64,000 nt of DNA, taken from sequence record PP777464.1; one strand, given 5' to 3'. Made by a program: the position numbers and the translations under genes. The DNA is from Escherichia phage fEgEco12. A model generated the notes under the pieces. The model saw only the letters and a program-made list of their open reading frames with translations, did no database searches and was not told the origin of the DNA. Shown here one piece after another: positions 18,080-43,599 of the stretch (within the stretch, counting starts at the first letter, position 1; each line of letters opens with the position of its first letter).

Positions 18080-19048
18080 GTGAAAAAGCTTGATTTAAAT
18101 GCAATTTCTGAAGAAGTACTGGATGAGTGTTTTGCTAGTGAAGAAGTCAACGTATTAGAGGCTCTTGATTCCGTCGAAGAAGAAGAAGAACATGACGGTC
18201 ACAAGTTTGAGAAACCAAAAACAGGTATCAGCTTAACTCGCCCTAAAGGGATAACGAATGAAATGCTCATCCAAGCAGTGCGTGATGGTATTGACGTTGA
18301 AAAGAACATTGACCTTTTGGTTCGCTACAACTATCCAATGGTAGTAAGTGTTGCACGTAAGTGTACATGTTTTATCCCATTTGAAGATAAGATTTCTTAT
18401 GGTGTTGAAGGTTTAATGCGAGCAATTCATACGTTCGACACTACCAAAAATGTTAAGTTCATTACATATGCAACAACAACTGTGTACATGACAATCTATA
18501 ACGAAAGTGCAGATGCTAATTATCTAGTGCATTTCCCACGTTATATGAGTGTTAATAACATTTATGTGAAACGTTGTGTAGAAGAGTATCAAAGGAAACA
18601 TGGTAAATACCCAACTCCTGAGATGGTGTCAAAAGAGACTGGTATTGAGATTCAACACGTTAAGAATTGTCTAACTTACAATAACACTTATGTAGCATTG
18701 AATATGAAAATGAGTAATGATTCAGAAAGTACATTATCTGACATTGTTACTTCAGTTGAACCTGATTACAACTTAGGCGTAGAAACTGTCAGTACCCCAC
18801 TGGTACAAAGTATTGCAGAAATGATGAGTAACCTATCTGCCAAAGACCGTGAATTGATTGAACGTGTACATGGTATTGGTTCTTATTCTGAACCAGAAAC
18901 GCTACGAGAAATCATTGAGAGTGGTTTTGAAGATGAGAAGGGTAAGGTCATGACTGCTCGTTCTTCATTGCACCGTAAGTACTCTGAAGCAATGGAACGA
19001 CTGCGTAAGATGGTTAAGACAAAAGGTTATGAGTTCGAAGATTTTTAA
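18080..19048 (+). CDS. sigma-70-family RNA polymerase sigma factor-like protein
   Basis: GTG start after AGGAG; region-2-like GVEGLMRAIHTFD...FITYATT; region-4-like C-terminal HTH. Confidence 0.55.
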   Translation: MKKLDLNAISEEVLDECFASEEVNVLEALDSVEEEEEHDGHKFEKPKTGISLTRPKGITNEMLIQAVRDGIDVEKNIDLLVRYNYPMVVSVARKCTCFIPFEDKISYGVEGLMRAIHTFDTTKNVKFITYATTTVYMTIYNESADANYLVHFPRYMSVNNIYVKRCVEEYQRKHGKYPTPEMVSKETGIEIQHVKNCLTYNNTYVALNMKMSNDSESTLSDIVTSVEPDYNLGVETVSTPLVQSIAEMMSNLSAKDRELIERVHGIGSYSEPETLREIIESGFEDEKGKVMTARSSLHRKYSEAMERLRKMVKTKGYEFEDF

Positions 19049-19055
19049 GATTAAA

Positions 19056-19081
19056 GGGTTGACTTCGGTCAGCCTTTTTTT
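19056..19081 (+). terminator. rho-independent terminator, UUCG tetraloop hairpin plus T-run
   Basis: GGGTTGAC-TTCG-GTCAGCC then TTTTTTT. Confidence 0.75.
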
Positions 19082-19089
19082 ATGGGACA

Positions 19090-19610: not shown

Positions 19611-19615
19611 AAGTC

Positions 19616-21470: not shown

Positions 21471-21563
21471 GTTTATATCAAAGGGAATGCAGTGAAAGGA
21501 AAGACAGCATAATCGTACTCGTCACTGCGTTTCCACCCTTTTAAATTAAATGAGGAATTAACT

Positions 21564-25188: not shown

Positions 25189-25421
25189 TATTGAGTTTTG
25201 TAGTTGCATTATTGTTTATGTTCTACCCTACACTAGTAGCAGTAGCCACTAAACGAAAGCTGGTGGATATCACTACTGTATTCTTGCTAAACGTGGCACT
25301 CGTTCTAGTGTCTATTATCATTCCCGTGAGCTTTACGGTTATTGATATGGCATCTGTATTACTATTCGTCTTCAGTTATCTTATGCTTATTGAAGAAAAA
25401 CCTGTTGACAAACGTTTGTAG
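25179..25421 (+). CDS. small membrane protein
   Basis: 80 aa, two hydrophobic segments. Confidence 0.5.
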   Translation: MYLVLSFVVALLFMFYPTLVAVATKRKLVDITTVFLLNVALVLVSIIIPVSFTVIDMASVLLFVFSYLMLIEEKPVDKRL

Positions 25422-25432
25422 TACTGTATAAT
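25405..25432 (+). promoter_or_regulatory. early promoter TTGACA-N16-TATAAT with extended -10 TG
   Basis: TTGACA 25405-25410, TGTATAAT 25425-25432. Confidence 0.55.
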
Positions 25433-26644: not shown

Positions 26645-26991
26645 AAGTAATTTTGTTTTTTGTTTGTATGATTATATGTGGTATGTCTTATGCAGAACCA
26701 TTACCTGGACTAGTCTGTACTGAAGGTGATATTAAACACATTTACCAAGGTGATAGCGATGACCATACTATCGTTTATATCGATGGTGAAGTGTATAATT
26801 TTGTTAAAGAACATACTGTAGGTGACATTAGTTTTACGCAGTACTCGAATGATACTGATCCCAATATGCTTGCATTTCTTCAAGTTGATGTATATGAAGA
26901 AAGTAATGGCGAACAGTATGTTAAACTTGTGATGATGCGTAAGGCAGCAAAACAGGCAACATTCGGTGGCTTGTGTAAATATGAGGACTAA
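26641..26991 (+). CDS. secreted protein (signal peptide)
   Basis: 116 aa, N-terminal hydrophobic stretch then YAEP. Confidence 0.5.
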   Translation: MKVILFFVCMIICGMSYAEPLPGLVCTEGDIKHIYQGDSDDHTIVYIDGEVYNFVKEHTVGDISFTQYSNDTDPNMLAFLQVDVYEESNGEQYVKLVMMRKAAKQATFGGLCKYED

Positions 26992-26995
26992 ACAT

Positions 26996-27187
26996 ATGTT
27001 GATTTATCAATGTGGTAACATTCGTGTTATGCAGCATCCCTACTTACAAATCTTTGATGTGCAGCAGTATATGGAAGGTGATGATCCAAGAACCTATGGT
27101 CGTAAGTATGATTACTTCACTGTAAAGCAGTGTCATAACATCAAAGAAGTACGACAATTAGTTCAAGAACTTCAAAATAAAGGTTGA
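26996..27187 (+). CDS. hypothetical small protein
   Basis: internal ATG of track ORF 26966. Confidence 0.4.
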   Translation: MLIYQCGNIRVMQHPYLQIFDVQQYMEGDDPRTYGRKYDYFTVKQCHNIKEVRQLVQELQNKG

Positions 27188-27213
27188 CTTCGGTCAACCT
27201 TTTTTGTTATAAT
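27181..27213 (+). promoter_or_regulatory. fused terminator hairpin plus early promoter (PeSL-like cassette)
   Basis: AGGTTGAC-TTCG-GTCAACCT then T-run; TTGACT inside stem, TATAAT 18 nt downstream. Confidence 0.65.
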
Positions 27214-27242
27214 TATTTCATCAACTACTGGGGATTTTAATT

Positions 27243-27683
27243 ATGTACGTATATCGTTTTGAACTTAAATTCAGTTATATTGAACCTAACTTAGATCCAG
27301 CAAAAACAGTAGGGCCGTTCGCACGGTACTCTTCACGATACAGTACTAAAAATGGATTTGACCGTTTGTGCATGACCACGCCTTCGCAATTCCAACCAGA
27401 ACCAACTGAAGATGGAATCTATTCAATCAAACGTGGCTGGGCATTTGGCTGTCAGAGTTTGAATGATTTGTTTAAGTTCTTTACTATGGACTTGGGTAAA
27501 TTACATCGTGCAGGGTTTGCTGTATCAGTATATGAAGTTCCTGATAATCATGTTGACATTGGTCGTAGTCAAGTTCAGTACTATTGTGGTAGTGCCAATC
27601 TGGTTCGTATCATGTCAGTGAGAGAAGCAAAGGATGAGTACCGCCAAAGTAAAAGAGTAATACATGAGGCTGTATATGGATAA
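27243..27683 (+). CDS. hypothetical protein
   Basis: 146-aa ORF. Confidence 0.55.
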   Translation: MYVYRFELKFSYIEPNLDPAKTVGPFARYSSRYSTKNGFDRLCMTTPSQFQPEPTEDGIYSIKRGWAFGCQSLNDLFKFFTMDLGKLHRAGFAVSVYEVPDNHVDIGRSQVQYYCGSANLVRIMSVREAKDEYRQSKRVIHEAVYG

Positions 27684-28020
27684 GACACAAATAGAATTAA
27701 AAAAATTTGTATCGTTTTATCTACCCAATGACCCACGTTGTACACAATATGATGTTGCATATTACAATGCATTGACTACACAGTTAATGAAGAAATTCAA
27801 ACAGTGTTTGACTGTATTCAATGATGATGGTAGACGTAGATATAGAATCATTCCAATGAATGATGAAAACGATAACTACTTTGACTTTGATGTTGTTTTT
27901 CGAGCATACAATGATGATAGAATAAAATTAAATTATGAGCAAATAATGCTTGACCTGAGTGTTATCTGTGTTATAATTACTCACATAGCCGAACTTGATG
28001 GTTTAAAAGAATGGTATTAA
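27676..28020 (+). CDS. hypothetical protein
   Basis: internal ATG of track ORF 27664. Confidence 0.5.
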   Translation: MDKTQIELKKFVSFYLPNDPRCTQYDVAYYNALTTQLMKKFKQCLTVFNDDGRRRYRIIPMNDENDNYFDFDVVFRAYNDDRIKLNYEQIMLDLSVICVIITHIAELDGLKEWY

Positions 28021-28034
28021 CTTAGAGGATAATC

Positions 28035-28301
28035 ATGAAGCTTAAATTACAATACAATGGTTTTACTTTGCGTAACGACACTGAGTTTGTCAATCGTTCA
28101 CCAGGTGCTGAGTTGTTTTTGCGAGAGATGAACATTCCTTTCGTCATCACTACTGTTGGTGACCGTGAAGTGCTACAATACGCAGAGCATCCAGTTATTG
28201 ATGTTCCGTGGTATTCTGAGCATATGTATATGGATATGGCCCGTCGCTACGACTGTAAGTTCGTAGTTGAAGGTGATAAAATTACAGTCCAATTCAAATA
28301 A
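28035..28301 (+). CDS. hypothetical protein
   Basis: 88-aa ORF. Confidence 0.5.
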   Translation: MKLKLQYNGFTLRNDTEFVNRSPGAELFLREMNIPFVITTVGDREVLQYAEHPVIDVPWYSEHMYMDMARRYDCKFVVEGDKITVQFK

Positions 28302-28312
28302 GGTAACTTAAA

Positions 28313-28606
28313 ATGATCAGTACTTCAGTAAATGCAAGCATCGTGGCAGACGTAGAAATGGTTAAAGAATGTACAGACGAAACCCTTCGCAACATGTACA
28401 TCAATGATTTGATTTCAGAGTACGGAAGTCGTGGTGTTCATGAGTTTGTTCGCCTAAGCGGTGAATTGATGAAGAATCGCATTCGTATGAAGCTTAATGT
28501 GCATCCAAAAGCATGGGCGTTTACAATGAAGTACGCTGAAGATATTGTTGAGTTGCGTCGCAATGATGTGTATAATCGTTTACACAATGGTACATTAAAG
28601 GACTAA
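28313..28606 (+). CDS. hypothetical protein
   Basis: 97-aa ORF. Confidence 0.5.
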   Translation: MISTSVNASIVADVEMVKECTDETLRNMYINDLISEYGSRGVHEFVRLSGELMKNRIRMKLNVHPKAWAFTMKYAEDIVELRRNDVYNRLHNGTLKD

Positions 28607-28656
28607 ATTATAGGAATCCGTAAAAGGATTCCTGTTCTTGTTTGTAAGGTAATAAA

Positions 28657-28881
28657 ATGAAATATCTAGTACTAGTACTGCTATTCTTGAGTACTGTTGT
28701 ATGTGCTAAACCAAAGTATCATGTAGTGTGTATCAACGAGATGGAAGGATATACTGAAACATATAAGAACCATATTGTTGAAGTTGCAGCCCAAGGTTCC
28801 TATGGGACCATCATCTTCCTTAAGAACAATGTGATTGTTCAGTACAAAAAAGATTCAAATTGTAAAGTGACTAAAAATTGA
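28657..28881 (+). CDS. secreted protein (signal peptide)
   Basis: 74 aa, hydrophobic N-terminus. Confidence 0.5.
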   Translation: MKYLVLVLLFLSTVVCAKPKYHVVCINEMEGYTETYKNHIVEVAAQGSYGTIIFLKNNVIVQYKKDSNCKVTKN

Positions 28882-28951
28882 TCTAGATCATTTTTTCAGA
28901 TATTCTCTGTAAATAATAGCAGTACAGAACATTATTTTACGGAGGTGTAAT

Positions 28952-29188
28952 ATGGAAACTATAATCATCATATGTGCGTTGTTTGCATTTTTGGTAATGT
29001 GGTCACCAACATTCATTGCATATAAAATGAAAAATAAAAATGCAGAAGCAATTATGTACGTAAACTTATGTTGCATACTAACTTATGGAATACTTTTATT
29101 CTTTACTGAATTTACATTAATCCCAGTAGTAGTTTGTTCATCAATGTTTATTTGGTTGTTTCTGCTTTATGAATCTATTAAAAAATAA
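28952..29188 (+). CDS. small membrane protein
   Basis: 78 aa, three hydrophobic segments. Confidence 0.45.
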   Translation: METIIIICALFAFLVMWSPTFIAYKMKNKNAEAIMYVNLCCILTYGILLFFTEFTLIPVVVCSSMFIWLFLLYESIKK

Positions 29189-29242
29189 AAGATATAGGGT
29201 TGGTAATATGCCATCCCTTTTACTTTATGTGGGGTTTAATTA

Positions 29243-29815
29243 ATGAATAGAAAAGGTAAGTTCAAAGTATCAAAGAAGAACAAAAGTTCTAGATTTAGAC
29301 CTATAACTTTAACTTTTAAGGCTAAAGAAGAATTAACTGCACTTAGTAAAAAGATAATTTCATCTAAGATTAAAGTATCATACGTAAATTCGTTAAAATT
29401 TCAGAAGGTTAAACCACAAGACAAACTCATTTCACTTATATTTGAACGTAATGATTTTGAGATATTAGTAGATGATTATAGAGCCTATAATGCTGGATTC
29501 ATCCATGTCACTTGTAATACCGAACTAACTGAGTTGGAACATTTGACATGTATCATAAGTGTAGATAACGGTGTGGTGAAGTACAAATTTTTACATTTTA
29601 CCAATATCAATAATGGAATGGGTGTACAATCCAGAACTATAGTACCTACATGTGATGTGACTAATTTAGCAAAGCTCAATGAAGAAGAATATTTTCAAGA
29701 AAGCATTGTAACTGAGCATTTAGATGCTATAATAGCAACTTACAAAGAATGCATATGGGTTTTGAATGCGATAAAGCCCAAATTGTGTTTAATGAATGTC
29801 GTTCGTGATTTATAA
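29243..29815 (+). CDS. hypothetical protein
   Basis: 190-aa ORF. Confidence 0.55.
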   Translation: MNRKGKFKVSKKNKSSRFRPITLTFKAKEELTALSKKIISSKIKVSYVNSLKFQKVKPQDKLISLIFERNDFEILVDDYRAYNAGFIHVTCNTELTELEHLTCIISVDNGVVKYKFLHFTNINNGMGVQSRTIVPTCDVTNLAKLNEEEYFQESIVTEHLDAIIATYKECIWVLNAIKPKLCLMNVVRDL

Positions 29816-29828
29816 CTGGAGATGTAGT

Positions 29829-30272
29829 ATGGGTTGGATTAACGTTAATAGCATTGAGCTAAATGAGCAAGACATATTTGCCTTTGTTAATTTGGTAGAG
29901 AACATTGCTATTAAAGGTCGTCTGTTTAGTTCATCGGACGGTAAAAAATGGATCTCTCTTATGAACGACAATGGCGAGATTTATGACGTTATGCAACTAC
30001 CTCATTGGGCTTATAAGAATACATCTGATGATGTGATGGCTGCTGTTATGCGTGAGTTTGAGAAGCTGCCAGGTGGTGATATTAAGAACATCGTATTCAA
30101 TGCAGAACGCATGAACTACACACCAGAGCAGCTTCAACAGTTGGCAATTGCTGCCTATCAAGCTGCCATTAAGAAACCTGAATGTGTGATATTAAAGTAC
30201 ACACCGGACTTGAAGTTAACACTAGAAGATATGGATTCCTTTATCTTCAGTTCAGAACTTAAACAGTACTGA
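29829..30272 (+). CDS. hypothetical protein
   Basis: internal ATG after GGAG. Confidence 0.5.
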   Translation: MGWINVNSIELNEQDIFAFVNLVENIAIKGRLFSSSDGKKWISLMNDNGEIYDVMQLPHWAYKNTSDDVMAAVMREFEKLPGGDIKNIVFNAERMNYTPEQLQQLAIAAYQAAIKKPECVILKYTPDLKLTLEDMDSFIFSSELKQY

Positions 30273-30383
30273 TTTGACTTTGGGACAACCATTTCTTACG
30301 TGATATAATCTTAAGTGTCTGTAGAAATAAACAGCACATGAAGTATAAATATTAAAGTAATTTATCTCTTTAAGGAGTATGAA

Positions 30384-30767
30384 ATGGTTGATAAATGGAA
30401 TAAGAAAGATCCATCGCATGATGTGGATATTTCTGGAATTGATAATGCACATAAGCATAAGTATCTTGATTCACTAGGTCTACTAAAGCCTGACCAAAGT
30501 CTTGCACATGATCGTCCTTCACGTGAAAAAGCTTTCAGTCTAGAATCACTAGGTCATGAATTGAATCGTGTATTTGAAGATCATCCAATTTATGTACGTG
30601 ATATCATTGAGAAACTTAAAGTGACTCCTAAAGAGCACTTCAAGGCAACAGTACACGCAGCATTCCGTGCACTACATGAAGCACTAAAGAAAACTCATAA
30701 CCTTCGTAAGATTCATGATGATATCGTGAACTCTATTGAAGGTGAAAAACATAAGTTTAAAAAATAA
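30384..30767 (+). CDS. hypothetical protein
   Basis: 127 aa; shares SLGLL motif with 31615 ORF. Confidence 0.55.
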   Translation: MVDKWNKKDPSHDVDISGIDNAHKHKYLDSLGLLKPDQSLAHDRPSREKAFSLESLGHELNRVFEDHPIYVRDIIEKLKVTPKEHFKATVHAAFRALHEALKKTHNLRKIHDDIVNSIEGEKHKFKK

Positions 30768-30773
30768 TTAAAA

Positions 30774-30807
30774 GGGGTTGACTTCAGTCAGCCCTTTGTC
30801 GTATAAT
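30774..30807 (+). promoter_or_regulatory. fused terminator hairpin plus early promoter (PeSL-like cassette)
   Basis: GGGGTTGAC-TTCA-GTCAGCCC; TATAAT 30802-30807. Confidence 0.6.
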
Positions 30808-30976
30808 ATTTTCATCAAGTGATACAAAATACAAACAACGTGAGGTATTAAATTATGCAAGGTACTAAATTCATCATCGCTGCCCTAATCGCTGCTGTTG
30901 TAGTGGGTACAGTATGTTATTCAATTGACACCTATATCAATACACCTAGTGTTGAACAAACCAAATAAGGGATATC

Positions 30977-31240
30977 ATGGCTGAAACATTATCACTATAT
31001 GCGTTAGTACTGTTATTTGTCGGATTTCTTCCCGCACTCATTACAGCCATTCGTGTTGTTAAACATGAAGCTGCATTGATTGTATGTAGTATTGGGTCGA
31101 ACATTCTATTGTATTTCTTTTTGACAAATACTATTGTACTGTTTGCTTTCTTTATCATGATTCTGTGGGTACTTGTAATTCTCGGATTCTTCATTTGGTC
31201 ATTGGTTGATCCTAAGAAAAAAACAGGAGAAGTGAAATGA
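30977..31240 (+). CDS. membrane protein
   Basis: 87 aa, three hydrophobic segments. Confidence 0.5.
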   Translation: MAETLSLYALVLLFVGFLPALITAIRVVKHEAALIVCSIGSNILLYFFLTNTIVLFAFFIMILWVLVILGFFIWSLVDPKKKTGEVK

Positions 31241-31533
31241 AATTAATTATTGTAATGATGATGTGTTTGGCTTTCCCAGTACTGGCTACTCCTAATCTGG
31301 ACTGCACACTGTTGCGTTCAGATGGTGACACACTTGAAATCAACACATATGAACTCTTTGGTCCAAGTGTAGTGGAGAATGAAACCACCTACAATTTCAA
31401 AGCTATTGACTTTGAAGGTAATGTTCCAGTACTAACTACAATGACTATTGACAAAACTACTTTGCTCGGACGAATCACCACACAACGCGGAGAAAGTAAA
31501 ACATTCACAGCGAAAGCTGACTGTAACTACTAA
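31237..31533 (+). CDS. secreted protein (signal peptide)
   Basis: 98 aa, hydrophobic N-terminus then LATP. Confidence 0.5.
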   Translation: MKLIIVMMMCLAFPVLATPNLDCTLLRSDGDTLEINTYELFGPSVVENETTYNFKAIDFEGNVPVLTTMTIDKTTLLGRITTQRGESKTFTAKADCNY

Positions 31534-31555
31534 TGGTATAGTACAGTGAAAATAG

Positions 31556-31586
31556 GGTTGACTTCGGTCAACCTTTTCTTTATACT
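31556..31586 (+). promoter_or_regulatory. fused terminator hairpin plus promoter (PeSL-like), -10 TATACT
   Basis: GGGTTGAC-TTCG-GTCAACC. Confidence 0.55.
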
Positions 31587-31614
31587 ATAAATATAGTCAT
31601 AGAGAATAAACAAT

Positions 31615-33126
31615 ATGAAATCTATGGAGAGAAATCAAATGCCAGGTCAATTTACTGATAAAAATGGCGGGAACATGGCAGGTCACTCTGATAAATGGAG
31701 TGAACGCAATCGTCGTCAAAATAGCTACCAAGCAGGACAGGGGTCACGTGGTTCACGTAATCAAGGGACAGGTTTAGCTGGTAAGGCAAACGCAGAAGCA
31801 GGTGAAGTTAAGAGTACTGAGAACATGACTGAGCTAGAAAAGCTACGTTATGTTAACTCATTAGGTCTTCTTAACGCAACACAGAAACAACGCCTTGCTG
31901 ATATGGAACGTGCTGAGAAAGAACAAGCAGTTCCTAAAGAAGAACCAAAACCAGAAGCTCCTAAAGCAGCTAACCCTGTTAAAGAGTTATCTGATAACTT
32001 AGGTAAGATCTTTGCTAACAAACCACAGTTGATTCAGGGTATTGTCAAAGCACTACAGGCAGTTCCTAAAGAAGAACTCAAAGGTAAAGCACAAGCTGTA
32101 CTTGATGCAATGAAAGGTAATAAGAGCACTGAACCTACTGAAGTATTCAGTACTATCATGCGTGCACTTGAAGGTACACACAAAGAAGATTCGAAAGAAC
32201 CTGAACAGGGTGAAGCAAGTCTTGATGGTATTCTTAAAACTTTTGATAGTATTGGTAAAGCAGACCGTGCTAATGCCCAGCAAGTCAAGAATGTACTGGC
32301 TAAACTTGAAAACCGTTTAGAAGGTAAAGACGATAAGGTTAAGCTCGTATCAGATGCAGTTAACAGTGCACTTAAATCTTATGTACAAGGTGAGAAAAGT
32401 CGCTTCGTAACAGCTATGGATGCTGCATTCAACACTATGAAAAAGTATGAAGCAGAACATGGTGAGAAAGTGACACCTGATGGATATCTACTACGTAAAG
32501 ATGAAGAAGGTGCAGTTGAACAGAAAGATGTTGAGCCTGAGCAAGAAGATCTACCTGATACCGTTGATATGGATGGATACATTCATCGTCCTGAGATGGA
32601 AGAGTTTGGGTCAGATAAAGAAGGTTTTGAACATGCAATGGCAGTATATAAAGCATTAGTTAAAAATCCAGATTATGCTAACCGTTTTGTTGACGAGTTT
32701 GATAGTGCATGGAATAACTATAAAGACAAAGGTTATGACTTCCCTGCTGAAGCTGCATTCTTTGAACTTGGTAAACTATTAGCTAAACATGGAATTGACG
32801 TTGGTTCATCTGATTCTGATGGTATGGAAGAAGAACATCTTGAAATGACTGATAAATCAATTCATGAACTTCAAAAGTTAATGATGTGGATATCCGAGAT
32901 TGGTAAAAAAGCAGGTGCTGATAGTAAAAGTATCAACAAAAATATTAGTTGGATTAAAGATAATGTTGGTAACAATGCTCGTAAACTTCAAAAGGCTTGG
33001 GCTGATTTAGTAAATGGTGCAGATGATGTTGACATTGAATCACCAGAAGCATATGAGTATGCACTAACTACACTTGATAACTCATTCAAAGAGTACGACC
33101 GTGGTGTTGGAAAGGATAAAAAATAA
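31615..33126 (+). CDS. hypothetical protein, 503 aa, K/E-rich
   Basis: largest + strand ORF in window. Confidence 0.65.
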   Translation: MKSMERNQMPGQFTDKNGGNMAGHSDKWSERNRRQNSYQAGQGSRGSRNQGTGLAGKANAEAGEVKSTENMTELEKLRYVNSLGLLNATQKQRLADMERAEKEQAVPKEEPKPEAPKAANPVKELSDNLGKIFANKPQLIQGIVKALQAVPKEELKGKAQAVLDAMKGNKSTEPTEVFSTIMRALEGTHKEDSKEPEQGEASLDGILKTFDSIGKADRANAQQVKNVLAKLENRLEGKDDKVKLVSDAVNSALKSYVQGEKSRFVTAMDAAFNTMKKYEAEHGEKVTPDGYLLRKDEEGAVEQKDVEPEQEDLPDTVDMDGYIHRPEMEEFGSDKEGFEHAMAVYKALVKNPDYANRFVDEFDSAWNNYKDKGYDFPAEAAFFELGKLLAKHGIDVGSSDSDGMEEEHLEMTDKSIHELQKLMMWISEIGKKAGADSKSINKNISWIKDNVGNNARKLQKAWADLVNGADDVDIESPEAYEYALTTLDNSFKEYDRGVGKDKK

Positions 33127-33135
33127 ACATTTAAA

Positions 33136-33162
33136 AGGTTGACTTCGGTCAACCTTTTTTTG
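33136..33162 (+). terminator. UUCG-tetraloop terminator (PeSL-like hairpin, weak -10)
   Basis: AAGGTTGAC-TTCG-GTCAACCTT then T7. Confidence 0.7.
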
Positions 33163-33197
33163 TAAATATTGTAGAGGGTTTTATAAGAGGTAATGCA

Positions 33198-33449
33198 ATG
33201 TTTAAATATGTTTTATTTTCACTTGTATTGTTTACTGATATAGTTTATAGTACTGAATACCAGTGCTCCATTGCTAGACAGGAGTTTAGAAACGGTGAGT
33301 TCTATACCAAGTCTTACACTAGAGGATTGGTACATGACAATAATAAAACTATAGGGTTCAATGCATTTGATAACAAAGATCGATATACGTCTGGAATACT
33401 ATCTGAACGTAAGTCGGATGTAATAGGTATCGAGCATGAATTCCGGTGA
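33198..33449 (+). CDS. secreted protein (signal peptide)
   Basis: 83 aa, hydrophobic N-terminus. Confidence 0.5.
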   Translation: MFKYVLFSLVLFTDIVYSTEYQCSIARQEFRNGEFYTKSYTRGLVHDNNKTIGFNAFDNKDRYTSGILSERKSDVIGIEHEFR

Positions 33450-33810
33450 CACAGTTGCAATGTGTAATGATATTGAGAGTACTAAGAAAGTATATACTAA
33501 TGGTGAAACTACCTTTAGATTCCACAATCTTACTACTAATGAAAGTTTATACTTCTACAACTGTAAAGAGTTCATTAAACCTGTGGATAACTCATGTGAT
33601 ATGCCGGAGCCAAAAGCTGCTGTATGTGAGGAACCACAATCCAAAGCTGACAAAGATTCAAAAGATAAGAAAGACAAAGCTGACAAATCGGATAAAAAAG
33701 AAAACAAAAAGAAAGCTAAAGATGATAAAGATAAAAAGTCCCCTAAGCCAAATCCATTTGAAAAGCCAAAGAATGAAAAGCCAAAACCAGACATGACATG
33801 TAAAATATAA
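33436..33810 (+). CDS. hypothetical protein with K/D-rich low-complexity tail
   Basis: 124 aa; overlapping frame 33446-33796 not preferred. Confidence 0.45.
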   Translation: MNSGDTVAMCNDIESTKKVYTNGETTFRFHNLTTNESLYFYNCKEFIKPVDNSCDMPEPKAAVCEEPQSKADKDSKDKKDKADKSDKKENKKKAKDDKDKKSPKPNPFEKPKNEKPKPDMTCKI

Positions 33811-33816
33811 AAGAAA

Positions 33817-33850
33817 AGGGTTGACTTCGGTCGGCCCTTTTTGCTATAAT
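33817..33850 (+). promoter_or_regulatory. fused terminator hairpin plus early promoter (PeSL-like cassette)
   Basis: AGGGTTGAC-TTCG-GTCGGCCCTT then TTTTTGCTATAAT. Confidence 0.65.
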
Positions 33851-33876
33851 CATTTCATCAACTACTGGAGGCAAAC

Positions 33877-34290
33877 ATGTTAAAAGTTATTTTCCGTTCT
33901 ATCAGTTCATTACTTCTTATGATTAGTTCAGTTTGTTATGCAAATGAAGTATCTGATTTATTTGAGAAGAATTACCCAACTGCACAAGAGATGGGTGTTT
34001 TAAAATGCAAGCTAACTTCGTACAACATCATCGGCAGTAAACTTGTACTGGAACATGAACGTAGTACACCAATCCCTCTAGTGGAAGAAGGTAGTACCTT
34101 TAGCTTCAAGTACGGGGTGAATGTAACATCTGGTGTAATGAACAATGTTGATGCAGAGACTGGTTCAACATGGAGTACTAGCGGTAAAGATGTGTTTCAT
34201 CGTATGCGTGAAAATGGTAAACTGAAGTACGTATATGAAAGTTCATTCATGAAACGTGTATTCATTATAAAAAATTGTGTACCAGCATAA
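33877..34290 (+). CDS. secreted protein (signal peptide)
   Basis: 137 aa. Confidence 0.55.
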   Translation: MLKVIFRSISSLLLMISSVCYANEVSDLFEKNYPTAQEMGVLKCKLTSYNIIGSKLVLEHERSTPIPLVEEGSTFSFKYGVNVTSGVMNNVDAETGSTWSTSGKDVFHRMRENGKLKYVYESSFMKRVFIIKNCVPA

Positions 34291-34301
34291 GGAACAACAT
34301 C

Positions 34302-34577
34302 ATGCGTTCATTTGAAAACTTAATCGGTAAACTTCGCTTACAAGAAATTGAAGCTGATGTGAAGGAATTATCTGAAACTAAGAGTTACATTCATTTAGAT
34401 GAACTGTTTATTAAGTACGGTGAGATTGGTTTTAAGTCATTATTTGTGTTTGTCATGAAGGTGCATAGTTTAAAGTACTTTGATTTGAGTTCAAAAGACG
34501 GACAACCAAATCTGTATTACATGTATTATCTTAAGAACATAGACGAAGCTAATACATTATTCTTAGAATATATGTAG
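34302..34577 (+). CDS. hypothetical protein
   Basis: internal ATG of track ORF 34275. Confidence 0.45.
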   Translation: MRSFENLIGKLRLQEIEADVKELSETKSYIHLDELFIKYGEIGFKSLFVFVMKVHSLKYFDLSSKDGQPNLYYMYYLKNIDEANTLFLEYM

Positions 34578-34586
34578 GGGTAAAAA

Positions 34587-34925
34587 ATGGAACAACATTT
34601 TGAATTAATTAATAAGGTATCATTTTATGTAGTATCGTTAATTTGGGTGTATTACATGTTTTGTTACATTATTGCATTCTTCCGATACACGACCTTGTAT
34701 CAACGCATATACTACGATGCACCAATTTCATTTTTGATGTTCAGTGCATGTACGTGGGGGATAATTGAAGCACTGGCATGTGGATATAGTACGGACGAAT
34801 TAAATCTCGTATCGGTGTTGACATTACTAACAATTGCTACTATGATAGCTACAGTTCCGATATTTTTGCTCTTTAAACTGCTTCATCGCATCGATGAGTG
34901 GCGTAATAAAATCCCTGAAAAGTAA
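34587..34925 (+). CDS. small 3-TM membrane protein, family member A1
   Basis: 112 aa; C-terminal RIDEWRNKIPEK. Confidence 0.6.
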   Translation: MEQHFELINKVSFYVVSLIWVYYMFCYIIAFFRYTTLYQRIYYDAPISFLMFSACTWGIIEALACGYSTDELNLVSVLTLLTIATMIATVPIFLLFKLLHRIDEWRNKIPEK

Positions 34926-34934
34926 GGATTGATA

Positions 34935-35276
34935 ATGATTTTTTACACTAATGCGTTTGCTTATGCCGTTGCATCAATCTACATTGTGTACTTCTTATTT
35001 GGTGGAGTACTGTACTTCTTTAAGTACAAAACATTGTTTAACCGAATGTATCCAAATCATCCAATTGTAGTAGTACTTTTGATTATTTCTGTTGCTCACA
35101 TCATTGTAGAAACAATAATGGGTATTAGTGCAGTACATTACAGTCTAGGTACTATTGTGATTATTACTATGATCATCGCATACATTTTAGTAATGGGTTC
35201 TGGTTTATTTGGGAATGTAGCAATGAAATTGTATAATCGAATTAAAACCTTACGTGATAATCTACCGGAGCGTTGA
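34935..35276 (+). CDS. small 3-TM membrane protein, family member A2
   Basis: ATG 34935 preferred over TTG 34929; C-terminal LRDNLPER. Confidence 0.6.
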   Translation: MIFYTNAFAYAVASIYIVYFLFGGVLYFFKYKTLFNRMYPNHPIVVVLLIISVAHIIVETIMGISAVHYSLGTIVIITMIIAYILVMGSGLFGNVAMKLYNRIKTLRDNLPER

Positions 35277-35277
35277 G

Positions 35278-35622
35278 ATGTATAATTTAAATTTAATCTC
35301 ATATATCATAACAACACTGTTTACTTTCTATACCTTTGTTGGTATACTCCTACTGTACTTTAAATTTTATAAACTCTTTGACCGTTTATATCCATCATTG
35401 GAACATGAATTCTTATTGGTGATGTACATCTGTTTAACGTGTATGTCTACATTTTTCACTGTATTTGATGGTATCATCGGTATTAAAGCTGAAGATCCAA
35501 ATGGTAGTACACTTGTTGCCTTTATCCTGGTAGGATTCTTCGGTACTTATATCACTTTCATTTCAACATGGTCTGTGGTTGATTATCTCATTAGATTACG
35601 AGATAAAATGCCAAATCGATAG
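35278..35622 (+). CDS. small 3-TM membrane protein, family member A3
   Basis: ATG overlaps upstream stop; C-terminal LRDKMPNR. Confidence 0.6.
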   Translation: MYNLNLISYIITTLFTFYTFVGILLLYFKFYKLFDRLYPSLEHEFLLVMYICLTCMSTFFTVFDGIIGIKAEDPNGSTLVAFILVGFFGTYITFISTWSVVDYLIRLRDKMPNR

Positions 35623-35631
35623 GGGGTTGCT

Positions 35632-35889
35632 ATGTTTGCATTGCGTAATAAAAATACAAAAGAGATTCTATGTATCTCAACAGTATGGGATTGTGCAGGA
35701 AGTGAAATGATTCTCGAAGAAGGTTCAGGTGATTGTGTTTATGTTGTTCAGGATCGTCGCGAACTGGAATCATTACTTGACGAATTTAATGCTGGTGGAA
35801 ATCCTAAAAGTACTCAATTCCCTGAGATCAGGAATCCAGCACCACCAGGCTCTTATGAAATTCTACAACTGTGGGAGATGGATAAGTAA
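35632..35889 (+). CDS. hypothetical protein
   Basis: 85-aa ORF. Confidence 0.5.
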   Translation: MFALRNKNTKEILCISTVWDCAGSEMILEEGSGDCVYVVQDRRELESLLDEFNAGGNPKSTQFPEIRNPAPPGSYEILQLWEMDK

Positions 35890-36269
35890 TGCGTCAAATG
35901 CACAAAGTAACCGAGCTAAACAAGCGTCTGATTAAACAATCAATGTTTGAGGATAAAGAGTCTTACTATAACTTCAAACGTGCTGTAGAGGCTGCTATCC
36001 ACATTCAGAAGCTTAAAGATAGTGGATGTATTATTCTCGAAAATGGTTCTGACGTTGTTACTGATGACTTCAGTGTAGCGTTTGATGTTTCACCTGATGG
36101 TTCGCTATCAATGCCACGCTTAGGGACTGGTGACATGACTGTGTGGGTAGGTTTCACTATGGGGAATGTACCAGGTACGGTGTATGTAGATGATGCTGAG
36201 TTGAAAGAAAGCTTCAAAAACTTATCGCATCTTGAACCACAATACGCACATGAAATGAATTTATTTTGA
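35889..36269 (+). CDS. hypothetical protein
   Basis: 126-aa ORF. Confidence 0.55.
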   Translation: MRQMHKVTELNKRLIKQSMFEDKESYYNFKRAVEAAIHIQKLKDSGCIILENGSDVVTDDFSVAFDVSPDGSLSMPRLGTGDMTVWVGFTMGNVPGTVYVDDAELKESFKNLSHLEPQYAHEMNLF

Positions 36270-36271
36270 GT

Positions 36272-36299
36272 TGACAAACTCATTCAGTACTGTATAATG
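36272..36299 (+). promoter_or_regulatory. early promoter TTGACA-N16-TATAAT with extended -10 TG
   Basis: TTGACA 36272-36277, TGTATAAT 36292-36299. Confidence 0.6.
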
Positions 36300-36345
36300 T
36301 TTATCAAGGGGATGAACTTCTCATCCCCACAATCGAGGAATTGTC

Positions 36346-36900
36346 ATGATTACTTTTAAGAAAACTGCTAACCACATCCATGAGATCTACATTAACGGTC
36401 ACAAAGCTGGCCTTCTTCGTTTACTCGCCCATCATCCGAATATTACCGTATCTGATAATGAACCTAAAGATTGGCGTGTATTTTTCTTTGGAAAGTACAG
36501 TGATTTTCAAGTATCAAACCTGAAGAACATTCGTTCAGTATGCACGTTAACTGAAATTAAAGAAAAGTTAACCAAAGCATTGAAAACTAATCCAGATAGT
36601 GTTCTTCCACCTGATAACTTTGTAGAGAAAGGATATGCCTTAGCTCATTTCAAAGATGGTACTATTCAATCTATCAGTACTGAATATGAATATCAATGGA
36701 CTGAGTACTTCACTTATGGATCGCGTAATACATTGATGGCTTCACGTAGTAAATTGGAAGAAGTACTGACTCGTATGAATGAACGCGAGCGTCAATTTTA
36801 TGACAAACCAGAAATGTGGAGTTCAACTTACATTGACCGTATTGACTATGTTATTATGACTCCAATCTTTGACACTGCTTACTATGATTCTTTGAAATAA
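36346..36900 (+). CDS. hypothetical protein
   Basis: 184-aa ORF. Confidence 0.6.
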   Translation: MITFKKTANHIHEIYINGHKAGLLRLLAHHPNITVSDNEPKDWRVFFFGKYSDFQVSNLKNIRSVCTLTEIKEKLTKALKTNPDSVLPPDNFVEKGYALAHFKDGTIQSISTEYEYQWTEYFTYGSRNTLMASRSKLEEVLTRMNERERQFYDKPEMWSSTYIDRIDYVIMTPIFDTAYYDSLK

Positions 36901-36911
36901 GGATAACTTAT

Positions 36912-37088
36912 ATGAAACTACGTACTCGTAATCGACTGATGGATGCACTGTACCATGAACAGCTTTCACTGAATGAAGTGAAGCGACAGTTAATGTACAC
37001 ATATCTGTTACCCGCTCGCATTGCAAAACAACGTGCTAAAGAATTGCTGAAAGAAGCAATCGAGTACTGGGAATCTGATTCGTACTAA
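36912..37088 (+). CDS. hypothetical small basic protein
   Basis: 58-aa ORF, hand-translated. Confidence 0.4.
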   Translation: MKLRTRNRLMDALYHEQLSLNEVKRQLMYTYLLPARIAKQRAKELLKEAIEYWESDSY

Positions 37089-37116
37089 TTGTCACGTTAA
37101 TTAAGTGAGGCGATAA

Positions 37117-37368
37117 ATGAAAATTTTATTAGTTCTAATACTACTAATTGTTTTACCATTTACGTTAGTATCCCCTGAACTTGCATGGAATGTGTTTGTG
37201 TACTTACTATGTACTATTGTAGTAAATGGTATCTTGTTCTTAGTTCTATTCATAAATGGAATAGGACACGGTGGAGGATGGACCAGTACTGCTGATATTG
37301 TACATAAAACCACTATGTCTTTATTTGTAGTGTGGAATTTATTCTGGACTTGGTTTGTGTTCTTCTAA
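37117..37368 (+). CDS. small membrane protein
   Basis: 83 aa, three hydrophobic segments. Confidence 0.5.
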   Translation: MKILLVLILLIVLPFTLVSPELAWNVFVYLLCTIVVNGILFLVLFINGIGHGGGWTSTADIVHKTTMSLFVVWNLFWTWFVFF

Positions 37369-37377
37369 TTAAAAAAT

Positions 37378-37749
37378 ATGAATATAGATTTGAAAGGTGC
37401 AACACGAACTGTCATACTCATTGGGGAATATGCTATCAAGATTCCAACCTTTAAAAGTTGGAAGCTATTCTTAACAGGGATGATAGCTAACCTCAATGAA
37501 CGTTCGTGGATGCAGTACTCCAAGCGTAGTAATAGTGGTATCTGCCCTACGTTGTGGTCATCATGTACTGGACTAGTAACTGTACAGAAGCGTTGTAAGC
37601 CAGTGCAACATAGGGGTTTATTTTGGGTGGAGTTGTGTGCTTTAGCATTGGATTCAGAGTTAAGTACTGACTTCTTCTATTCAGATGCGAAGCCAGAAAA
37701 CTTTGGGTATCTGTGTGGTAAGTTGGTTAAACTTGATTATGGAGATTAA
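37378..37749 (+). CDS. protein-kinase-like mini ORF (Gly-rich loop/AIK ... DAKPEN ... DYG spacing)
   Basis: K21, D103-x-K-P-E-N, D120-Y-G at kinase-like spacings of 82 and 17 residues. Confidence 0.4.
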   Translation: MNIDLKGATRTVILIGEYAIKIPTFKSWKLFLTGMIANLNERSWMQYSKRSNSGICPTLWSSCTGLVTVQKRCKPVQHRGLFWVELCALALDSELSTDFFYSDAKPENFGYLCGKLVKLDYGD

Positions 37750-37750
37750 T

Positions 37751-38020
37751 ATGTACGCATTGTATAATAAAGAAAAGAAACGATTTGCTAAGGTTGAAAT
37801 TTCGATTGATACATTTGACATGTTGGAGTACTGTATTGTAACGGATTTATATGCTAACTTGTATTACGTTCTTGATGACGTATCAGTACTGCAACGATTG
37901 CTTGAGAATTCCAAAAGTCAATGCCAGGGCATCCATGATGGTTCATCTTATGAAACACCTGAGTGTTCCTACGGCTATCTGGACGGGTATGAGATTGTGA
38001 AGTTGGGGATTGTTGAATAA
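37751..38020 (+). CDS. hypothetical protein
   Basis: ATG after GGAG; track start 37685 overlaps upstream gene. Confidence 0.45.
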   Translation: MYALYNKEKKRFAKVEISIDTFDMLEYCIVTDLYANLYYVLDDVSVLQRLLENSKSQCQGIHDGSSYETPECSYGYLDGYEIVKLGIVE

Positions 38021-38032
38021 ATGGATTAAACA

Positions 38033-38446
38033 ATGAAGAAGTGTATCACGTGTAATATTGAAAAAGACATTAGTGAATTTGGTATAAGAAAAGATACTGG
38101 GAAACATAGAAATACATGCAAAGGTTGTAGTAATATTACCAGTAAGAAAACCAGAAATAAAAAAACTGATGTCAAAAAACTTGAAGAAATCAAAAGAAAA
38201 AATAAAGATTTCATGACCAGAGTTAAATCATTTTATGGTTGTAGTATTTGCATGATGAAGTATCCAGAATGTTTAGACTTTCACCATCTTGATCCTAATA
38301 CCAAAGAACATACACCAAGTTCTATGTTCAGTAAAAGTCGAGAATCTATCAAAGATGAAATTCGAAAGTGTATGATTCTTTGTTCTAATCACCATCGCAT
38401 GGTACATTCTGGTAGACTATGTTTGATTGAAAGAAAAAAGGGTTGA
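38033..38446 (+). CDS. HNH endonuclease-like protein with Cys-rich N-terminus
   Basis: CITCN...CKGC; HHLDP...N...CSNHH motif. Confidence 0.55.
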   Translation: MKKCITCNIEKDISEFGIRKDTGKHRNTCKGCSNITSKKTRNKKTDVKKLEEIKRKNKDFMTRVKSFYGCSICMMKYPECLDFHHLDPNTKEHTPSSMFSKSRESIKDEIRKCMILCSNHHRMVHSGRLCLIERKKG

Positions 38447-38472
38447 CTTCGGTCAGCCCTTTTTGCTATAAT
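38441..38472 (+). promoter_or_regulatory. fused terminator hairpin plus early promoter (PeSL-like) overlapping HNH stop codon
   Basis: GGGTTGAC-TTCG-GTCAGCCC then TTTTTGCTATAAT. Confidence 0.65.
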
Positions 38473-38500
38473 CATTTCATCGAAACGAGAGGATGAATAC

Positions 38501-39016
38501 ATGACACGCATTAACTTAGTACACGTTAAAGAACTTGCTGACCAACATCTGATGGCTGAATATCGTGAACTCCCACGTGTGTTTGGTGCTGTACAAAAAC
38601 ATGTTCAAGCACGTAAGCGAGTCCGTGATTTCAAAATTAACAGTACTTATCTGTTAGGTTCAGGTCATGTAACATTCTTCTACGACAAGTTATTGTACTT
38701 ACAGAAGCGTCATATTGAAATTGTTAACGAATGTTTGCGTCGTGGGATGAAGATTCAAAACACTGAAGTAAACGACATTAGCGGCATCCCTGCTGAGTTT
38801 TGTAATGACTACGCACCATCGGAGTCAGAGATTAAAATGTCTCGTGAGCGTTTGATTGAGAAGCTCCAGATGAAGCCTACTTGGTATAAATTTACTGACG
38901 TTGAACGCCCAGAGTACGTTAAAGATATGCAGGACGTAAGTAGTAATATAGAATCTAGTACTGATATGTTCGACGAAATTGAAGAACAAATCAAAGATGA
39001 AATGAATAATTATTAA
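38501..39016 (+). CDS. denV: pyrimidine dimer DNA glycosylase/AP lyase (T4 endonuclease V homolog) with C-terminal extension
   Basis: N-terminal MTRINL...[21 protein letters not shown]...KRVRDFKI...[10 protein letters not shown] matches T4 DenV from memory. Confidence 0.9.
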
Positions 39017-39022
39017 AGGAAA

Positions 39023-39055
39023 GGGTTGACTTCGGTCAGCCCTTTTTGCTATAAT
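39023..39055 (+). promoter_or_regulatory. fused terminator hairpin plus early promoter (PeSL-like cassette)
   Basis: GGGTTGAC-TTCG-GTCAGCCC; TTGACT 39026-39031; TATAAT 39050-39055. Confidence 0.65.
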
Positions 39056-39083
39056 TATTTCATCAACTGATGAGGATAACGAA

Positions 39084-42367: not shown

Positions 42368-42392
42368 ATCCAGTACTATAATAGTACTGGAT
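42368..42392. terminator. bidirectional hairpin between convergent membrane-protein and cassette arrays
   Basis: TCCAGTACT-ATAAT-AGTACTGGA. Confidence 0.65.
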
Positions 42393-42397
42393 TAATT

Positions 42398-43522
42398 TTA
42401 ATTATCTAAGCCACCAATTACACTGAACTGTGTGGTAACGTCTGAACTATTATCTATGTAAGTTCTTCTACCAACATAATATAGTTGTCCTTTTGCTTGA
42501 ATAAAAGTTACGGTCCCTGTATTGAATGTTATAATATCATTGTATGTAATGTCAGGTGGTAGTGCTGCTGATAACGCAGTAACTTTACTTAATGCAGCAC
42601 TAGTACTACCATTTATACCAGCAGCAATACTACCAGTACCATAGAACTTATTATCTTTACCAATGAATACGTTGGCTGATGCTTGTGTAGCTGATGTTAT
42701 TGCCTTACCAATTTGGAATGCGGTTCCTATGGTGTATGGTGTGCTCCTGGCTGCGTCTATGCTTTGTGTATATCCATCCCCTAGCTGACCATTAACTTTG
42801 TCACCACATGAGTATAGAGTACCATTGAGGCTGTATATGATCCCACGGTTAGAGAAGCTAACAGCTTCTGCATTAGTCCATACTGGTGCGGTGTATGAGT
42901 TTACACGACTAGCGGTAGTTCCTAGACCTAGTATACCATATGTGTTATCACCACATCCAAACCATTGTCCAGAACTGTTTTGATAGAACACTGAACGTTC
43001 TGTTGATTCCATGCGTACAGCATCCACAGCACCACTTTTAACGAACGAAGTTGATGAGGATGTAGTACCAGTACCCAATGCACCATAAGTGTTTGTACCA
43101 ATCGCATAGATTGATCCTAGTGGTGTCATAACACGTATGCAGTTATATCCCAATTGAACTTTACATTCAAATAGGTTGTCCCATATTTCAGGAACAGCAG
43201 AAAATAAATTTGTAATTTCGAACCATGATGTTGTCGAATCAGTTAATCCAATACTGCTTTTGTTTCCTAAAATGAAAACAGTTTTGTCCTTCTTAATTAT
43301 CCATGATGATAGGAAACCTATCTCACAGCTATGAACATTTGATTCTATTTGGGTAATATAATACTTAACTGTGTTATCACCCATGAATGCCGCAGCACCG
43401 GATGCAAAAAGGTTTCCAGTTTGTTTATTTAAAATGTAGTTATTGTTTCCATATACACTAACATCATAAGAACTTTCTTGTTTTTCGTTCCCATAATCAA
43501 ATAACAATACGAAAGGTAACAT
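42398..43522 (-). CDS. cassette protein 15 (last in array): RCC1-like repeat beta-propeller, variant N-terminus MLPFVLLFDYGN
   Basis: GTNTYGALGTG, GDNTYGILGLG, GDKVNGQLGDG repeats. Confidence 0.75.
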   Translation of the reverse strand: MLPFVLLFDYGNEKQESSYDVSVYGNNNYILNKQTGNLFASGAAAFMGDNTVKYYITQIESNVHSCEIGFLSSWIIKKDKTVFILGNKSSIGLTDSTTSWFEITNLFSAVPEIWDNLFECKVQLGYNCIRVMTPLGSIYAIGTNTYGALGTGTTSSSTSFVKSGAVDAVRMESTERSVFYQNSSGQWFGCGDNTYGILGLGTTASRVNSYTAPVWTNAEAVSFSNRGIIYSLNGTLYSCGDKVNGQLGDGYTQSIDAARSTPYTIGTAFQIGKAITSATQASANVFIGKDNKFYGTGSIAAGINGSTSAALSKVTALSAALPPDITYNDIITFNTGTVTFIQAKGQLYYVGRRTYIDNSSDVTTQFSVIGGLDN

Positions 43523-43599
43523 GATAAAATCTCCTTGTGTTATACTTTATTTAATCATTTTATAATGTACAATTTTACAGCGATTTAATTGAGGTACTC

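Follow-up and report, generated by a model that had tools for sequence, protein, structure and literature searches.

Hairpin-promoter cassettes of probable PeSL type recur in the early-gene block of an Asteriusvirus jumbo coliphage

Promoter-early/stem-loop elements (PeSLs) were defined in the phages RB49 and phi1 as an AT-rich tract, a sigma70 promoter, a stem-loop and a Shine-Dalgarno (SD) sequence with its ATG, and were divided into five subclasses by the position of the stem-loop, which in one subclass overlaps the -35 box (Arbiol et al. 2010, PMC2839356). For RB49/phi1 only, lacZ reporters demonstrated terminator and promoter activity, and inverse PCR revealed mini-circles (Arbiol et al. 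2010, PMC2839356). PeSLs have also been extended to the pairs PST/T4 and nt-1/KVP40, the latter pair having the stem consensus A3-4G3-loop-C3T3-4 (Comeau et al. 2014, PMC4122927). Here we analyze a stretch of 64,000 nucleotides from Escherichia phage fEgEco12 (sequence record PP777464.1; hereafter the window), in which a hairpin fused to a promoter recurs between genes. We consider these repeats likely to be composite regulatory cassettes of the PeSL type, placed among the early genes of an Asteriusvirus jumbo coliphage. An earlier note on this DNA had likened them to the PeSLs of T4-type phages. All sequence-level features of PeSLs are indeed present, including an SD sequence and a start codon at the 3' end of the cassette; the phage itself is an Asteriusvirus (121Q/PBECO4-like, Rak2-type), neither T4-type nor a member of the Straboviridae, and only five of the eight copies carry a good early promoter. 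Hairpins with C(UUCG)G tetraloops reportedly occur in intergenic regions of phage T4 as well, a description attributed to Tuerk et al. in 1988. Like the window hairpins, they set this extra-stable loop on a short intergenic G+C stem in a large virulent coliphage, whereas in the window the stem is fixed by an embedded -35 hexamer and the promoter follows at a fixed distance.

The PeSLs of T4-like phages and the window cassettes are alike in what they pack into ~100 nt: AT-rich tract, stem-loop, sigma70-like promoter, SD sequence and ATG. Each type recurs within hyperplastic regions made up of small open reading frames (ORFs) and adjoins indels and replacements between close relatives. The AAAGGG...CCCTTT of the window cassettes also fits the stem consensus of nt-1/KVP40. 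In contrast, the window copies are far more uniform, with one stem sequence in one position relative to the promoter, and whereas T4-like PeSLs number ~50 over several regions, in 121Q about seven of eight copies lie in one ~15-kb region. A further comparison is with CBB, a Rak2-like phage whose RpoD-like early promoters are listed in Table S5 of its description (Buttimer et al. 2017, PMC5259590). They belong to the same phage clade as the window, lie in the same early short-ORF region and have an A-rich UP-like tract, and at least one of those listed (Porf_41, AAAAAGGAGTTGACAACAGTTGGCTCCTTTGCTATACT) has its -35 box inside a hairpin. They differ in having been treated as plain promoters: the words 'hairpin' and 'stem-loop' are absent from the text, and no link to recombination is drawn (PMC5259590). 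The CBB list was all that our literature search returned for promoter or transcript studies of 121Q, PBECO4, RaK2 and Asteriusvirus. A search for the motif string gave no relevant paper, and we found no paper reporting PeSL-type cassettes in Rak2-like phages.

The window region is 99% identical to Escherichia phage vB_Ec-M-J and 86-89% identical to 121Q, PBECO4, G17 and other Asteriusvirus genomes (350-385 kb). From base 1 to ~44,000 the window is a + strand block of small ORFs, almost all of which carry hypothetical annotations. Of the near-consensus sigma70 promoters in this block, 25 are on the + strand and 1 is on the - strand, indicating an early region transcribed by the host RNA polymerase; the same has been proposed for CBB, a related phage (Buttimer et al. 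2017, PMC5259590).

We searched the window with the pattern GTTGACTTCGGTCARCC, permitting up to 2 mismatches. Eight matches were found, all on the + strand and none with more than one mismatch, at 19058, 27183, 30777, 31557, 33138, 33820, 38442 and 39025 (by which the copies are named below), versus 0 expected from 100 dinucleotide-preserving shuffles, in agreement with the repeated intergenic hairpin of the earlier note. All eight lie within 19-39 kb, inside the + strand block. RNA folding, which had been proposed as a check, yielded a stable hairpin for every copy, with seven core pairs that A.U pairs extend to 9-13 pairs, free energies of -12.7 to -19.5 kcal/mol and z-scores of -3.2 to -5.5. 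The loop is UUCG in seven copies and UUCA in copy 30777. An A-tract of 4-8 nt lies upstream of the GG(G) of the stem, and in six of the eight copies the hairpin starts 57-60 nt before the next ATG. In a strict intrinsic-terminator scan of our own design (minimum stem 6 bp, minimum 6 T within 8 nt) seven of the eight copies passed; over the whole + strand of the window the scan found 9 intrinsic terminators, these seven included. The T-run ascribed to the hairpins thus follows seven of them and is weak at 30777. The GenBank record of G17 annotates these hairpins as ARNOLD terminators. Two copies also overlap the end of a gene, the TGA inside TTGAC being the stop codon of ORF 26966-27187 (copy 27183) and of ORF 38033-38446 (copy 38442); the latter is the HNH endonuclease gene of PHROG 2255 whose overlap had been noticed before.

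Five copies (27183, 30777, 33820, 38442 and 39025) contain TTGACT-N18-TATAAT (11/12), with the -35 hexamer TTGACT inside the 5' arm of the hairpin. The earlier note had placed TATAAT 17-18 nt after the -35 hexamer; this holds for these five, at 18 nt in each, and fails for the other three, where no good early promoter is present. In copies 19058 and 33138 a convincing -10 box is missing, and copy 31557 has only TATACT at 17 nt, overlapping TATAAATA. Such copies correspond to the 'half' PeSLs in the sense of Comeau 2014. The string conserved around TATAAT was also borne out, TATAATYATTTCATC being exact in four copies and carrying one mismatch at 30777, and TGn stands ahead of the -10 box in four of the five promoter-bearing copies. 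Downstream of the -10 box follows (C/T)ATTTCATC, replaced at 30777 by ATTTTCATC. The former string puts a C-A step 7 nt past the -10 box, which is predicted to make a good start site.

We further collected every GGTTGAC-N4-GTYRRCC of the window, of seven relatives and of the IMG/VR loci that an exact scan had retrieved, which gave 125 distinct contexts; these include orthologous copies from related phages and so are not independent, although they span several phage families. At least five of the six bases of TATAAT stand at a spacer of 17 or 18 nt in 85 of the 125 contexts (68%), versus 2 of 125 (1.6%) at two control offsets, showing that the hairpin-embedded -35 hexamer is coupled to a -10 box. 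Twelve IMG/VR loci hold the same 17-mer in another context, tggtggaacGTTGACTTCGGTCAGCCctatagtttggtag, which is itself conserved; all come from sample 3300045988, on contigs of 94-270 kb, and have neither T-run nor promoter. There the 17-mer probably belongs to a structured RNA or a gene unrelated to the cassettes.

From these features we infer that transcription actually terminates and initiates at the cassettes. The proposed unit would span ~70 nt and comprise an A-tract, GG(G)TTGAC-UUCG-GTCARCC(C), T5-7, (TGn)TATAAT, YATTTCA(+1)TC, an SD sequence and ATG. In RNA arriving from upstream, the hairpin and U-run would act as an intrinsic terminator; in the DNA, an early promoter for host sigma70 would take its -35 hexamer (TTGACT) from the 5' arm of the hairpin and its spacer from the T-run, with the A-tract as a likely upstream (UP) element. 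With the terminator hairpin carrying the -35 hexamer in its 5' arm, a single stretch of 50 nt would both close one transcription unit and open the next. The half of the cassette that holds the hairpin would also be joinable to a late promoter (31557) or to no promoter (19058, 33138). Because the copies share 20-50 nt of identity, they would also serve as sites of short-homology recombination, the outcomes of which would be deletion, insertion, module replacement and gene conversion. The coordinates are given in Table 1. We regard copy 1 as a terminator only, since it has no -10 box at the right distance; copy 5 is a terminator and perhaps a weak promoter too.

Table 1. Hairpin cassettes of the window and associated features; copies are numbered in order of position, with the match position in brackets.
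Feature	Position	Strand	Elements	Setting
Copy 1 (19058)	19048..19085	+	hairpin 19053-19078, UUCG loop, T7 run	directly after sigma-factor gene
Copy 2 (27183)	27173..27242	+	A-tract, hairpin 27179-27202, -35 27184-27189, T-run, TGt, -10 27208-27213, predicted +1 A 27220, SD	ATG 27243
Copy 3 (30777)	30767..30854	+	UUCA hairpin, -35 30778-30783, -10 30802-30807, predicted +1 30814	downstream of virion structural gene 30384-30767, upstream of 114-nt ORF
Copy 4 (31557)	31547..31614	+	hairpin 31554-31575, T-run, then TATAAATA 31586-31593 over weak TATACT	upstream of virion structural gene 31615-33126
Copy 5 (33138)	33128..33197	+	hairpin 33133-33158, T7 run, poor -10 TGTAAATAT	after structural gene; ATG 33198
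Copy 6 (33820)	33810..33876	+	hairpin 33813-33842 including two U.G pairs, -35 33821-33826, TGc, -10 33845-33850, predicted +1 33857	ATG 33877
Copy 7 (38442)	38432..38500	+	hairpin 38435-38464, -35 38443-38448, -10 38467-38472, predicted +1 38479	denV ATG 38501
Copy 8 (39025)	39015..39083	+	hairpin 39018-39047, -35 39026-39031, -10 39050-39055, predicted +1 39062	ATG 39084
HNH endonuclease gene, free-standing	38033..38446	+	PHROG 2255, E=1.6e-32	between upstream gene and copy 7
Gene module between copies 3 and 4	30818..31549	+	730 bp in window	

We aligned positions 18-46 kb of the window to vB_Ec-M-J, WPEC3, G17, 121Q, JP4, UB and Salmonella phage SD-15_S21. Gene content between and next to the copies differs among these relatives, so that the invariance which the earlier note had set against module shuffling is not seen. 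Six of 30 unique breakpoints fall inside cassette footprints, although these cover just 2.5% of the sequence compared (binomial p=8e-5). Likewise, a breakpoint is present at five of seven cassette-bearing junctions versus 6 of 47 other gene junctions (Fisher p=0.0025). The right breakpoint '39922' of the 121Q-type relatives is partly a divergence artefact (gp223 homologue, 96% amino-acid identity), and only the left breakpoint was used there. The module between copies 30777 and 31557 extends from the predicted start site of the first to 8 nt short of the second, and in 121Q, G17, JP4 and SD-15_S21 a 134-bp segment replaces it; UB has another sequence again in its place, beginning at 30808. The HNH gene is inserted directly ahead of cassette 38442 and is absent from 121Q, G17 and SD-15_S21. 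In the window, cassette 39025 alone separates denV from gene 39084, and at this variable site the relatives hold 0.7-4.1 kb of differing genes. The inserts of vB_Ec-M-J, 121Q, G17, JP4 and UB start with a half-cassette, GTTGACTTCGGTTACAC, whose 3' arm is destroyed, and hold one or two full cassettes; SD-15_S21 has two full cassettes instead. WPEC3 carries a different, 2.2-kb insertion that interrupts denV near the 3' end of the gene (L002, 20502-23010) and includes a 1551-nt endonuclease gene with a hairpin-promoter cassette of its own (TTGACT-17-TATTAT).

The most direct view of a junction comes from the pair that is 99% identical. The window lacks 2,288 bp that in vB_Ec-M-J lie between a half-cassette (GTTAACTTCGGTCA|cac), which keeps the 5' arm, the loop and GGT, and a full cassette, and the two ends share 19 nt of cassette sequence; in the window the resulting junction falls within cassette 39025. 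As judged from these ends, the loss is a deletion by crossover between the half-cassette and the full cassette. Cassettes have also shifted relative to genes. Gene 33877-34290 encodes a homologue of 121Q gp204, with 41% identity. The 121Q cassette stands after gp204 and before a protein kinase gene, whereas in the window the cassette stands before the gp204 homologue and the kinase is absent. Furthermore, at site 27183 the window clade has tatttcatcaactactgg as the leader past the -10 box, identical to the leader of the paralogous copy 33820, while five other phages have tctcttaataaattagagg at the orthologous site. A leader matching the paralogue and not the orthologues indicates gene conversion.

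Several points weigh against this reading. The terminator and promoter activities of the cassettes are predicted from sequence, the U-run of copy 30777 is poor (only CCCTTTGTCG), and the promoter spacer of 18 nt is one nucleotide over the optimum. The seven relatives are non-independent samples. Many indels lie off the cassettes, at 28769-29238, 37088-37377 and 42392-43792 and at several places inside gene 31615-33126. When the window and vB_Ec-M-J, the closest pair, are compared over all 64 kb, only one of seven early-block indels falls at a hairpin cassette. Two of the others lie at 19-21-nt repeats of a second, hairpin-less promoter family and two beside tRNA genes; of the remaining two, one interrupts a different promoter within its spacer and one lies where an SD-ATG region is repeated. 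This survey indicates that the preferred crossover sites are short repeated regulatory sequences in general and not the hairpin cassettes only. Selection, with insertions tolerated at the borders of transcription units, could also lie behind part of the breakpoint enrichment.

Taken further, that last point becomes the strongest competing account, possible but in our judgment clearly the less probable one: the cassettes would be ordinary constrained terminators and promoters, and indels would merely be tolerated at transcription-unit borders without any recombination mediated by the cassettes. Cassette junctions are the only roomy intergenic sites, as most other genes abut or overlap, and many indels occur without a cassette. 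The design, moreover, is nearly fixed by the need for a U-run, for a tetraloop that is stable and for a 5' arm that contains the -35 hexamer, so that a convergent origin is possible, as the copies in Brochothrix phage A9 suggest. Against this account stand breakpoints within the hairpin itself, as in the half-cassette and in the 19-nt identity at both ends of the window deletion, the gene-conversion patch between paralogous copies, and the repeat-flanked indels that the second, hairpin-less promoter family also shows. Since junctions lie inside the hairpin, we argue that the cassettes themselves recombine, and we infer that recombination, rather than selection, places the breakpoints.

It is unlikely that free-standing homing endonucleases (HNH and others) drive the gene turnover, with the cassettes as bystanders or target sites, although such genes are close at hand. 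Besides the HNH gene that abuts cassette 38442 and is missing from 121Q, G17 and SD-15, endonuclease genes lie directly upstream of the right-hand cassette at site 39025 in vB_Ec-M-J, G17 and JP4, 121Q and UB hold an endonuclease-type gene in the same interval, and the module inside denV of WPEC3 couples an endonuclease with its own cassette. Yet no endonuclease gene takes part in the exchange of module 30818-31549 or in the cassette shift around gp204, and the 2.3 kb deletion in the window removes an HNH gene, its ends being cassette repeats. A Pfam search of the HNH ORF gave no match; its assignment comes from PHROGs.

The variation of the stem is that of a paired RNA. Among 32 distinct stem variants 98.7% of pair cells hold standard pairs, a fraction that falls to 33-50% when the partner is slid by one column. 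One compensatory pair, G2:C17 to A:U, was found among these variants, and the 3' arm accounts for 11 of the 12 stem changes that affect one side only, all 11 being transitions yielding G.U pairs. In the 5' arm, TTGA never varies. Such a bias toward the 3' arm is expected if the 5' arm serves both stem and -35 hexamer and the 3' arm the stem alone. The loops of the 38 distinct variants retrieved include UNCG (UUCG, UACG), GNRA (GAAA, GCGA, GUAA, GAGA, GCAA) and others, and loops that start with A turn the -35 hexamer into a perfect TTGACA. It is highly improbable that the inverted repeat acts as DNA (a cruciform, or a site for a phage recombinase or regulator) and not as an RNA terminator: the repeat is highly stereotyped and clustered within ~20 kb, and protein binding to the stem-loop has been speculated upon (Arbiol et al. 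2010, PMC2839356), but its commonest form, GGTTGAC/GTCAGCC, has a T.G mismatch as DNA and a U.G pair as RNA, hence our rejection of a cruciform, the variants add more G.U pairs while RNA pairing is kept through all substitutions, every copy is on the coding strand with a T-run after it, and the loops vary freely among stable RNA tetraloops. Separately, we rejected a miniature inverted-repeat or other transposon-like element because all copies have a single orientation and a fixed distance to the next ATG; the flanks examined gave no hint of terminal inverted repeats beyond the hairpin or of target-site duplications, although no dedicated scan was run.

Copy 31557, counted among the early promoters in the earlier note, turned out otherwise. 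The T4-type late-promoter consensus TATAAATA is strongly depleted in the window, with 2 occurrences versus 11.8 expected. One lies at 30344-30351, just upstream of gene 30384-30767, and the other inside cassette 31557, upstream of 31615-33126; these genes are the two annotated as virion structural in 121Q (gp199 and gp201). We therefore read cassette 31557 as a terminator hairpin joined to a predicted late promoter, for which the PmSL of phage nt-1, a stem-loop with a middle promoter, offers a parallel. With cassette 30777 after the first structural gene, 33138 after the second and 31557 bearing the late promoter, the hairpins appear, from their placement, to insulate the two late virion genes from the surrounding early units.

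We also examined how widely the cassette is distributed. BLAST of a 49-nt cassette against 50,697 phage records matched 178. Asteriusvirus and other Rak2-like jumbo phages (K64-1, GAP32, fHe-Yen9-04, Erwinia pEa_SNUABM) match at 3-9 places each; matches also occur in Schizo-T4 vibriophages (KVP40, 81% over 47 nt; D482, 91%), Aeromonas T4-likes, Certrevirus-like phages of ~150 kb and, for the hairpin part, Brochothrix phage A9. In KVP40 the site is located at 21.1 kb, within the hyperplastic region of Comeau et al. 2014; it reads AAAAGGGTTGACTGCGGTCAGCCCTTTCGCGTATTATAGCTTCATCAAC and has the same sequence architecture. This comparison and the others, together with the PeSL subclass described above, identify the window cassettes as PeSLs of the '-35 overlap' subclass. 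Near-identical 45 nt are thus found in Rak2-like phages, Schizo-T4 vibriophages, Aeromonas T4-likes, Certrevirus-like phages and Brochothrix A9, and the shared positions include some of no obvious function, namely the leaders CATCGAAACGA and TTCATCAAC and, ahead of the -10 box, the last base of TGC. Such a spread across families could reflect horizontal spread or convergence.

The leader motif CATCGAAACGA(A/G), at 38473-38492 of the window, just past the predicted start site, recurs at five loci outside the window, in cassettes of unrelated CR3-like, RaK2-like and VH7D-like phages, and the leader TTCATCAAC is common to the window cassettes and KVP40. The shared leader motif could be a trace of horizontal cassette transfer. 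A bolder proposal, which we put forward as doubtful, is that the cassette is one horizontally travelling module and not a convergent design, with a layout that could exploit the 'recycling termination' of E. coli RNA polymerase (PMC11347151). Host polymerase released at the U-run would then find itself inside the next promoter, reinitiate at once and pass to the next early unit.

The novelty of these cassettes is modest and lies in the group of phages concerned, an extremely uniform design, the very clean deletion junction, the pairing of the same hairpin with a late promoter and the wide spread of nearly the same 45 nt. PeSL-type mobile regulatory cassettes would thereby be extended from T4-like phages to Rak2/121Q jumbo phages, and the deletion junction inside a cassette between two 99%-identical genomes would be a clean natural example. 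The uniform layout (A-tract, -35 hexamer in the 5' arm, tetraloop, U-run spacer, extended -10 box) would amount to a compact 50-nt stop/start part of possible use in synthetic biology. For annotation, such sites deserve both terminator and promoter marks. The cassettes may also flag the places where gene content most likely differs in these therapeutic-candidate phages.

Other features of the early block were noted alongside. It contains six tRNA genes (Ser x2, Met, Asn, Thr x2) at 2892-7140 of the window. Rfam at gathering thresholds and ARAGORN, run over the whole window, returned these six tRNAs only (2.9-7.1 kb) and zero matches at the cassettes. Where the window has two tRNA-Thr genes, vB_Ec-M-J has one tRNA-Thr and an HNH endonuclease gene. 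The sigma-factor gene ahead of copy 1 occupies 18080-19048 and encodes a sigma70-family protein (Pfam regions 2 and 3); its terminator is followed by ~600 bp (19090-19700) poor in ORFs, with a further promoter at 19617. At 8575-8632 the promoter TTGACA-18-TATACT is followed immediately by a strong terminator hairpin (8606-8632), so that the predicted transcript would measure only ~35-50 nt, possibly a small RNA. At 12116-12146 a 14-bp hairpin between A- and T-runs is a predicted terminator on both strands.

The second early-promoter family, which has no hairpin, has the form TTGAC(A/T)-N8-(C/T)AGTACTG-TATAAT-G(T/G)TT, with the palindrome CAGTACTG in its spacer. Its sites, all on the + strand, are 3587-3616, 4079-4108, 21443-21470, 25405-25432 and 36271-36298. 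Its 19-21-nt repeats flank two of the indels that distinguish the window from vB_Ec-M-J: at 4027-4078 a duplication unit of 71 bp, and at 21464-21482 the loss of a 330-bp gene. An unrelated cassette lies on the - strand between tandem RCC1-like ('regulator of chromosome condensation') paralogues, with hairpins at 44276, 46646, 47857, 49046, 51117, 53562, 55948, 57201, 58395 and 59575 (also 42393). Its order is GCCAGTAC-loop-GTACTGGC, TTTTCTTTTT, (G)TATTAAATATAGTATAATGAATAAAGGAGG and ATG, and its half-site CAGTAC is the palindrome of the second promoter family. The window and vB_Ec-M-J differ in their number of RCC1-like paralogues, and the breakpoints lie at these hairpins and where the genes have their conserved starts.

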